Of a stretch of DNA of 64,000 bases, positions 17,530 through 18,793 are shown in pieces (positions within the stretch are counted from its first letter, which is position 1; each line of letters begins with the position of its first letter). The DNA comes from Nannocystis sp. GTDB taxonomy: Bacteria; Myxococcota_A; Polyangia; Nannocystales; Nannocystaceae. The position numbers were made by a program, and so were the translations under genes. The notes under the pieces were generated by a model. It did no database searches. It was not told where the DNA came from and saw only the letters and a program-made list of their open reading frames with translations. Where the stretch lies: assembly GCF_016717175.1 (NCBI RefSeq), contig NZ_JADKFZ010000003.1, one strand, 5' to 3'.

Positions 17530-17622
17530 CTTGGGGCTCAGGGTGCTGGGCTCAGGGGCGGCCGGCGAGGGCGGTGATGCGTCCGATCAGGGGCGGCCGC
17601 CGAGGGCGGTGATGCGGTCCGA

Positions 17623-18793
17623 TCAGGCGCGGCCGGCGAGTACGGCGACGCGGTCCATCAGGCGCTGGACCTCGGCCTCGGTGTTGTAGAAGTGGGGGCC
17701 GAGGCGCAGGCCGCAGTTGGGGCGCCAGTCGAGCTTGAAGCGCTCGGCGATCAGCTGCTTGCTGGCGGCCTCGCTGGCGGGGAAGTCGACGGCGACGAAG
17801 CCAGTGCGCTCGGCGTCGGCGAGGGGGGAGTGAATGGTGAGGCCGCGGGCCTGGGCGCGCTCGATGATGATGTGGGCGAGGGCGAGGTTGTGGGCCCGGA
17901 TGCGATCGAGGCCGATCGCGTGGAGGTTCTCGTAGGCGGCGCGGGCGACGTAGTAGGCGGGCATCGAGGGGGTGCCGGCGAGGAAGTGGCGGTGGTCGCT
18001 GGCGTAGCGGATCGGCGGCGGCTCGAAGCTGAAGGGGTCGGCGTGGCCGAGCCAGCCGGTCAGGCGCGGCCGCAGGCGCTCGCGCAGCGCCGGCTTCATC
18101 CACAGGAAGGCGGTGCCCGGGCCGCCGCACAGCCACTTGTGGCTGCCGCCGACGACGATGTCGGCGTCCCAGTCTTGCGACGTCGATCGGGACGGCGCCG
18201 ACGGTCTGATAGACGTCGACCATGACCAGCGCGCCGACCTCGTGGGCGCGGGCGCAGATCGCCTTGACGTCCTGCAGCGCCCCGGAGACGTAGATGCCGT
18301 GGGAGATCGGGACGATCGCGGTGCGCTCGTCGATCGCGGCGAGCATGCGCTCCAACGGGATCGTCATGCCGTCGTCGGAGGGGACCAGGTGGAGGTCGGC
18401 CCCGAGCTCGCGGTAGCGGTCCCACACGTAGAGCACGTTGGGGAACTGCAGGGCCTCGACGACGACCTTGTTTCGGGGGCCGGAGAAGTCGAGGGCGCTG
18501 GCGACGGCGGCCTGAAAGTAGGCGACGTTCTGGTTCAGGATCGTCTGGCCGGCGGGGGCGCCGAGGAAGCGGGCCGCGCTGTCGGCGGTGGCCTGCAGCA
18601 CGTCGAACCAGTGCGGCCAGACCTCGACGCCCTCGCGGGCCCAGTCGGCGGCGTACTGGGCGAGCGCGGCGACGGCCTGTCGCGGCATGGCGCCCATGCT
18701 GTTGCTGTTCATGTAGGTCGTGTCGGCGAGGATCGGGTAGTCCTCGCGGTAGCGGGCCAGATCGGGCTGAAATTGCGGGCGGATCGCGGTCAT
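17623..18793 (-). pseudogene. kynU: Kynureninase, interrupted by a -1/+1 frameshift near 18150 (real pseudogene or sequencing error)
   Basis: The N-terminal part (MTAIRPQFQPDLARYREDYPILA...VDVYQTVGAVPIDVA) is in the frame of the long ORF ending at 18793. The expected continuation DWDADIVVGGSHKWLCGGPGTAFLWMKPAL... is in another frame and joins ORF 17623..18099. Confidence 0.8.

Follow-up and report, generated by a model that had tools for sequence, protein, structure and literature searches.

Tandem duplications across the stop codons of three Nannocystis genes probably reflect slippage or template switching filtered by selection

Introduction

Why would three unrelated genes in one stretch of a bacterial chromosome each be followed by a tandem copy of their own 3' end, stop codon included? 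The question is raised by a stretch of 64,000 nucleotides (nt) from Nannocystis sp. (assembly GCF_016717175.1, contig NZ_JADKFZ010000003.1), referred to as a whole as the window, with a G+C content of 69-75%. In it a kynureninase-like gene (kynU), the pyrB gene at its junction with carA, and a gene with an HD_4 domain (the HD gene) all run into head-to-tail repeats of their last codons. An earlier note on this DNA, made from its letters, left two explanations standing: a systematic mutational process at gene ends, such as replication slippage or template switching, and an assembly artefact with a common cause. We examined the arrays against a second assembly of the species, against sister lineages and against a census of tandem repeats. 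We consider it probable that duplications of the slippage or template-switching type arose in the lineage of this species, and that they recur at stop codons because selection filters them and not because the mutational process is targeted there.

Results

Tandem Repeats Finder (TRF) placed the kynU array at 17552-17662 (period 35, 3.1 copies, 88% matches), the pyrB/carA array at 26598-26752 (period 77, 2.0 copies, 92% matches) and the HD array at 39527-39632 (period 55, 2.0 copies, 86% matches). All three duplications described earlier were recovered: the stop-proximal 35 nt of kynU three times in tandem, the segment with the pyrB stop and carA start twice (with a unit of 77 nt and not 76 nt), and the stop-proximal part of the HD gene twice, where the second copy has shrunk to 53 nt by a 2-nt deletion. 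Searches for the core motifs of the units gave exactly two occurrences each in the window and none elsewhere, as well as none in 100 dinucleotide shuffles. The genes concerned were identified by their Pfam domains as kynU (minus strand, end at 17623; Aminotran_5 and KYNU_C), pyrB (25584-26657; OTCace_N and OTCace), carA (26731-27891; CPSase_sm_chain and GATase) and the HD gene (39021-39578; HD_4), which faces a convergent TerB gene (39644-40198).

The arrays are real, derived and old, and their extra copies have decayed. Evidence comes from the second, independently accessioned assembly, GCA_964267895.1. One of its segments (L087) aligns with 16708-34308 of the window at 99.2% identity over 17.6 kb, with 98 mismatches, 22 gaps and private indels of its own, and it matches the kynU triple and the pyrB/carA double at every position, the diverged positions included. 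Another segment of the same contig (L095) carries the HD array in a variant form with one extra sub-unit of 29-31 nt. Two Illumina contigs from metagenomes share 99.7-99.9% identity with the window; both terminate within the pyrB/carA repeat, and one of them extends 4-5 nt past the junction of copy 1 and copy 2. The divergence between copies is informative as well. At sites where the functional copy has changed synonymously, the extra copy still has the bases of the relatives, and this holds for each of the three arrays: GCCCTC is found in the extra kynU copies and in the sister, GTACTC in the functional copy; CCGCAG in the extra pyrB copy and relatives, CCGCGG in the functional one; GAGCGC and ACGGCG in the extra HD copy and relatives, GAGCGT and ACTGCG in the functional one. 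Since the extra copies hold ancestral states they are not consensus errors. All three arrays are absent from the sister lineages examined (L083, L084 and L086; L096-L098; L088-L090), so they are derived in this lineage.

These observations bear directly on the idea that the arrays are assembly or consensus errors with a common cause in an error-prone long-read metagenome assembly. The window does hold artefact-like sequence. A 1-nt insertion at about 18130, found neither in the second assembly nor in a sister genome, splits kynU into two frames. A block of about 1.75 kb (52460-54200), bounded by the start of one minus-strand gene (about 52437) and by the 3' end of another, amidase-like one (about 54200-54846), has 91-99% G+C in 200-nt windows, no T on the plus strand and long runs of G and C; it looks like a junk consensus of the long-read assembly and not like biology. 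Against this stand the identical kynU and pyrB/carA arrays and the variant HD array of the other assembly, the ancestral states of the substitutions between copies and the short-read contigs that end in, or just cross, the pyrB/carA repeat. We therefore consider an artefact extremely improbable, and the corresponding suggestion of the earlier note falls away. The second assembly has a different 1-nt insertion in kynU together with several other split genes; sequencing error is the likely source of both kynU insertions, and in the living organism the gene is probably intact. We rejected the reading of kynU as a pseudogene on the grounds that the frameshifting insertion is private to the assembly of the window and that the other assembly has a different one.

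The kynU array shows how such an expansion proceeds. On the minus strand the functional 3' end (unit U1, 17623-17657, stop TGA 17623-17625) encodes a C-terminus MDRVAVLAGRA where the intact sister protein ends in MDRVVALAGRA. It is followed by U2 (17587-17622), a 36-nt non-coding, decayed copy whose own TGA lies 12 codons downstream in the kynU frame, and by U3 (17552-17586), a 35-nt copy whose TGA is outside that frame. U2 is identical in L087 and absent from L083 and L084. Four derived changes are common to U2 and U3, which indicates that U3 was copied from an already diverged U2 in a second, later step. After U3 there is a further mini-duplication (17534-17558, minus strand) of the stop and the old 4-nt spacer, in which CCCTGAGCCC occurs twice, 15 nt apart; this pair adjoins the upstream side of the ATG of the next gene (17529-17527), and the sister has a single TGAGCCCATG. 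In L083, L084 and L086 the kynU stop is followed by 4 nt and then by the ATG of the next gene, so that the distance between the two genes appears to have changed from 4 to 93 nt.

At the pyrB/carA junction the duplication has produced a small open reading frame (ORF). Copy 1 (26598-26674, plus strand) contains the functional pyrB 3' end, a Shine-Dalgarno (SD) sequence AAGGAG, the pyrB stop (26655-26657) and a carA-type ATG (26654-26656) that overlaps it; its differences from sister sequences are synonymous without exception. Copy 2 (26675-26751, plus strand) is decayed in its pyrB part, where two changes are non-synonymous; it also has a second SD, a TGA (26732-26734) and, at 26731-26733, the real ATG of carA. 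Between the two ATGs runs the micro-ORF noted earlier (26654-26734, plus strand), which as read from the sequence has 26 sense codons and a TGA stop (26732-26734), 27 codons in all, and would encode MSAESATVLVRACGVSAGTCLKEQVV. Its ATG overlaps the pyrB stop (ATGA, 26654-26657), its TGA overlaps the carA ATG (ATGA, 26731-26734), and AAGGAG stands 8 nt ahead of both ATGs. The unit length of 77 equals 3x26-1, and only one of the three possible unit-length classes gives rise to such a double ATGA overlap. The ORF now lies between pyrB and carA, and ribosomes could therefore still be handed over from the one gene to the other. In the sisters L083, L084 and L086 (pyrB 94% identical in amino acids, about 89% in nucleotides) pyrB and carA overlap by TGATG; in the more distant L096-L098 (pyrB 88% amino acid identity) the overlap is ATGA and carA has the same length as in the window. 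A scan of genome contigs with carA returned only conserved motifs in distant phyla, at no more than 56% identity, and a scan of metagenome contigs for the 28-nt SD-ATGA core gave no matches.

A short segment just past the array differs among these sequences. Codons 8-15 of carA (GGCGCGAGCGATCGGGGGCCGGGG, 26752-26781) are present in the window, diverged in L096 and deleted in L083, and the carA-like start in copy 1 lacks the same few bases of the carA N-terminus as well; the segment seems prone to indels.

Could the duplications have been kept because they are useful, as back-up stops, as a means to uncouple or re-tune translation, as a leader ORF for carA or as a spacer that bears a signal? 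At pyrB/carA a complete SD-ATGA relay has been kept, of the kind that one unit-length class in three permits. The arrays are also common to both readable assemblies of the species. The extra copies, however, decay freely, with non-synonymous changes, indels and loss of frame, and the arrays are missing from every sister lineage examined. The spacer after the HD gene varies between the assemblies and is wholly different in a relative at 94% nucleotide identity. No match to Rfam was found at the array sites, none of the units has significant structure, and a scan for promoter-like and terminator-like sites, which covered the surroundings of the kynU and HD arrays, gave none. Retention for usefulness appears to us very unlikely. 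The earlier note stated that each extra copy carries its own in-frame TGA. This is correct in the homologous frame of each copy; relative to the frame of the upstream gene it applies only to kynU copy 2 (36 nt) and fails for kynU copy 3, pyrB copy 2 (77 nt) and HD copy 2 (53 nt).

In the HD array, unit 1 (39527-39581, plus strand) is the functional 3' end with the stop at 39576-39578 and the C-terminus LCERYAGLTA, which is conserved in close homologues. Unit 2 (39582-39634, plus strand) is the decayed 53-nt copy with its TGA at 39629-39631, and it takes up the greater part of the 65 nt that separate the HD gene from the convergent TerB gene (stop 39644). L088 and L089 have the same gene neighbours (HD 97% identical in amino acids, 94.4% nucleotide identity overall) and no HD copy, and L090 likewise lacks it. 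Their HD-TerB spacer (L088, L089) is 72 nt long, is unrelated to that of the window and contains a 10-nt duplication in the region of the TerB stop. A derivation of the L088 spacer from the TerB 3' end by duplication and decay was tried and rejected, the local alignment being no better than with shuffles (p = 0.3); the only real duplication in it is the one of 9-10 nt, TCAGCCGAG.

The surroundings of this array suggested another origin, namely that the copies were left behind by mobile or integrative elements or at recombination junctions, such as att-like copies of gene ends or products of homology-facilitated illegitimate recombination. A 6.2-kb segment (33390-39637) that L083 lacks has the HD array directly at its right edge, and the gene downstream of kynU is far more diverged from its L083 counterpart (53% amino acid identity) than kynU itself (about 90% nucleotide identity). 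The 6.2-kb block is syntenic in L090, however, and hence ancestral and lost by the sister lineage of L083, so that a tie between the HD array and this indel boundary was rejected; L083 has an orthologue of the gene downstream of kynU, which is merely fast-evolving. The copies are head-to-tail with nothing between them and have no other copy in the window. No integrase or transposase was noticed beside the arrays, where the flanking genes were not systematically screened, and the two tRNA genes lie 9 kb away. Motif searches of the window detected no dispersed copies of the units, which share no motif among themselves, and a dispersed or mobile repeat was rejected on this basis. We give element scars next to no credence. 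The block itself comprises an FG-GAP/ASPIC gene, two unknown genes, a glutathione peroxidase gene and the HD gene, and its place in L083 (17713-18460) is taken by a 750-nt spacer with inverted-repeat arms of roughly 100 nt, as judged by eye, and tandem repeats of 91 nt x2 and 33 nt x3.4.

What process made the first copies? The unduplicated kynU end of L083 and L084 contains CGCCTGA twice, exactly 35 nt apart and at the boundaries of the later unit; 7-nt repeats with roughly this spacing have a background rate of about 4e-4 per position. L088 has GCTGC twice, exactly 55 nt apart, at the boundaries of the HD unit, a weak match of 5 nt. The microhomology at the kynU unit, the expansion of kynU in two steps and the apparent difference of one 29-31-nt HD sub-unit between the two assemblies, both of which have indel errors, together support a process of the slippage or template-switching type. 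To this extent the mutational process proposed in the earlier note was borne out; its targeting to gene ends was not. Slippage or microhomology-mediated template switching is the best-supported origin, clear for one event and suggested by extension for the others. Slippage driven by hairpins or palindromes (the palindrome GAGACATGTCTC; GCTCAC..GTGAGC) was rejected by comparison with shuffles: the fold z-scores of the units range from -0.8 to +1.7 and no unit folds better than its own shuffles. As to the molecular mechanism, slippage as against break repair, and the neutrality of the events, we infer both.

To place the stop codons in context we took a census of the 64-kb window and about 76 kb of relatives, counting TRF rows with a period of at least 7 outside the G/C-only block. 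The window has 55 rows with a period that is a multiple of three and nine loci with one that is not. All nine of the latter are non-coding or straddle gene ends; three are the arrays under study and the other six are purely intergenic (20391-20484, two by TRF; 33379-33448; 42288-42349; 44303-44358; 62981-63102). Arrays in coding sequence have multiples of three, with the exception of a conserved 10-nt repeat of 2.3 copies in pyrB that is not an insertion. The same is true of arrays within genes of the relatives, except for two weak TRF rows in called L090 genes (periods 13 and 17, scores 50 and 53). We then placed random intervals on the gene maps of the relatives (about 76 kb). Intervals of 35, 55 and 77 nt included a stop codon in 2.5%, 3.9% and 5.5% of all positions, and in 19%, 27% and 34% of those intervals that did not lie wholly within coding sequence. 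The observed share of stop-including arrays, 3/9, fits the 19-34% expected at tolerated positions. Furthermore, the ancestral genes left almost no room between them: kynU was followed by a spacer of 4 nt, and pyrB and carA overlapped by 4 nt. A duplication of 35-77 nt could therefore be tolerated there only if it took in a gene end. We take survivorship under purifying selection, and not a property of the mutational process, as the best reading of the association with stop codons.

The competing idea is a process targeted to gene 3' ends, by fork stalling or by breaks linked to the termination of transcription or translation. Three of three arrays with long units (at least 35 nt) include a stop, for which the joint p is about 0.02 even under the tolerated-position model. 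The short-unit intergenic arrays begin just past the upstream stop and not beside the downstream start, and further small stop-containing duplications are found in L088 (1846-1865; TCAGCCGAG(G) twice at the TerB stop, 10 nt x2) and in L090 (14055-14093; GTGAGCTGGCCTT three times, 13 nt x3, from the stop of the gene at 13384-14058). On the other side, the share of 3/9 among all arrays with periods that are not multiples of three fits a neutral filter, and selection to keep a promoter or ribosome-binding segment before the next start would equally place arrays near stops. The three genes lie on both strands without a common orientation relative to GC skew, their units have neither a significant hairpin nor a common motif, and in-frame arrays are common inside genes, so that the process is not limited to their ends. 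Targeting seems to us unlikely.

Several points nonetheless weigh against our explanation, in its mechanistic part and in its account of the stops. Clean microhomology is present in only one of the three events, that of kynU. The 5-nt match at the HD unit is weak, with about 0.03 such matches expected in a boundary window of ±5 nt. L083 has a 10-nt repeat, GGTCCTGGCC, spaced 83 nt apart, yet the pyrB/carA unit is 77 nt, and an ancestor like L096 gives at most 2 nt shared at the junction; this event may have come about by break repair, or by a larger duplication and a subsequent deletion. The HD difference of 31 nt between the assemblies could be an assembly error and not a polymorphism. The census covers less than a whole genome, and the long-unit events taken alone give the low joint p above, which rests on a post-hoc choice of events and a small sample and is not persuasive; a mild true bias toward gene ends may exist.

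Other repeats and duplications were observed along the window. The intergenic short-unit arrays have units of 11-14 nt in 3.4-9 copies and, where the flanking genes could be placed, begin 6-28 nt past the upstream stop, with about 45-60 nt remaining up to the next start. In L096 the gcvT-gcvH spacer has different arrays. An in-frame repeat at 19616-19874 (48 nt x4.1, 95%, and 60 nt x1.9) lies in the N-terminal part of an unknown 381-amino-acid protein (18790-19935, minus strand), whose sister orthologue has 331 amino acids and is about 170 nt shorter at the repeat. Two adjacent paralogous lipoprotein-like genes (40255-44300) are about 76% identical in nucleotides over 1.4 kb and have one counterpart within the readable 21 kb of L083, which ends inside that gene; the pair may be a gene-scale tandem duplication. 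The two tRNA genes (30202-30269 and 30413-30486, minus strand) are situated between a gene for a cysteine-rich repeat protein and an MVP-shoulder gene and are unrelated to the arrays.

Discussion

The sequence of events that we propose is the following. Replication slippage or microhomology-mediated template switching would have generated short tandem duplications in the lineage of this Nannocystis species after its split from the closest sister lineages, with later rounds of expansion and contraction. Where a duplication spans a stop codon, the first copy would stay the intact end of the gene and the protein would be unaltered, and the extra copies would then be free to decay, adding non-coding spacer. 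Inside a coding region such an event would survive only with a length that is a multiple of three.

What follows from this is partly practical. Genuine gene-end repeats can occur in a long-read metagenome-assembled genome, and a second assembly, sister genomes and ancestral-state fossils can separate them from artefacts without recourse to reads. Purifying selection alone makes tandem duplications in a gene-dense genome seem targeted to stop codons. The pyrB/carA junction offers a concrete case in which spacer DNA and a small relay ORF were born from coding sequence between formerly overlapping genes of the pyrimidine pathway. Current views on mutation and gene organization are unaltered. One could speculate further that the lineage has an unusually active process of short tandem duplication, with at least 5 arrays gained in about 28 kb relative to the sisters, which turns gene 3' ends into intergenic DNA. 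We regard this as doubtful. If it were true, the process would separate overlapping or coupled genes and create relay micro-ORFs, would provide one measurable route to the gain of spacers in the very large genomes of myxobacteria, and would possibly have a hotspot just past stop codons.

Several known systems resemble the arrays in part. One is the translational coupling of genes whose stop and start codons overlap (ATGA or TGATG; reviewed in PMC12548453), which resembles the ancestral pyrB-carA junction with its overlap of 4 nt or 1 nt, and both ends of the micro-ORF keep ATGA and SD. As a point of difference, the duplicated relay ORF would be a by-product. For compact animal mitochondrial genomes, intergenic spacers are commonly reported to come from slipped-strand duplication of the ends of neighbouring genes (for instance PMC5585954, PMC9162313). 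As there, the genome here is gene-dense and new spacer is born as a decaying duplicate of an adjacent gene end; the type and scale of the genome differ.

Also comparable are the tandem repeats of Borg elements, where repeats within ORFs without exception have units that are multiples of three, unlike the majority of those between genes, and where the arrays have partial repeats on their flanks and about half of them are intergenic or have their first unit in a gene end (10.1101/2022.05.18.492195). The multiple-of-three rule, the partial flanking repeats, the siting at gene ends or between genes and the differences between close relatives are all shared. Borg repeats are perfect, A-rich, of many copies and very dense, whereas those described here have 2-3 copies, are GC-rich and 8-14% diverged, and reside on a bacterial chromosome.

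The nearest parallel may be drawn with microhomology-mediated tandem duplications (MTDs), which are frequent and reversible, favoured by long GC-rich microhomology and filtered by frame in essential genes (PMC8639346). E. coli is reported to have about 20-fold fewer of them than S. pombe (PNAS 2021, PMC8639346), and their density in bacteria is thus little documented. Like MTDs and classical slipped-strand duplications, the Nannocystis copies are head-to-tail and span tens of bases between short direct repeats (7 nt, 35 apart, at kynU); the microhomology is GC-rich, further expansion and contraction seem to have occurred, and lengths preserve the frame within genes and show no frame bias outside them. 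MTDs are subclonal events with which the fixed, old and diverged copies described here, known through comparative genomics, contrast, and of the three events one has clear, one weak and one ambiguous microhomology. Taken together, the arrays are a fresh myxobacterial instance of an already known kind of tandem duplication.

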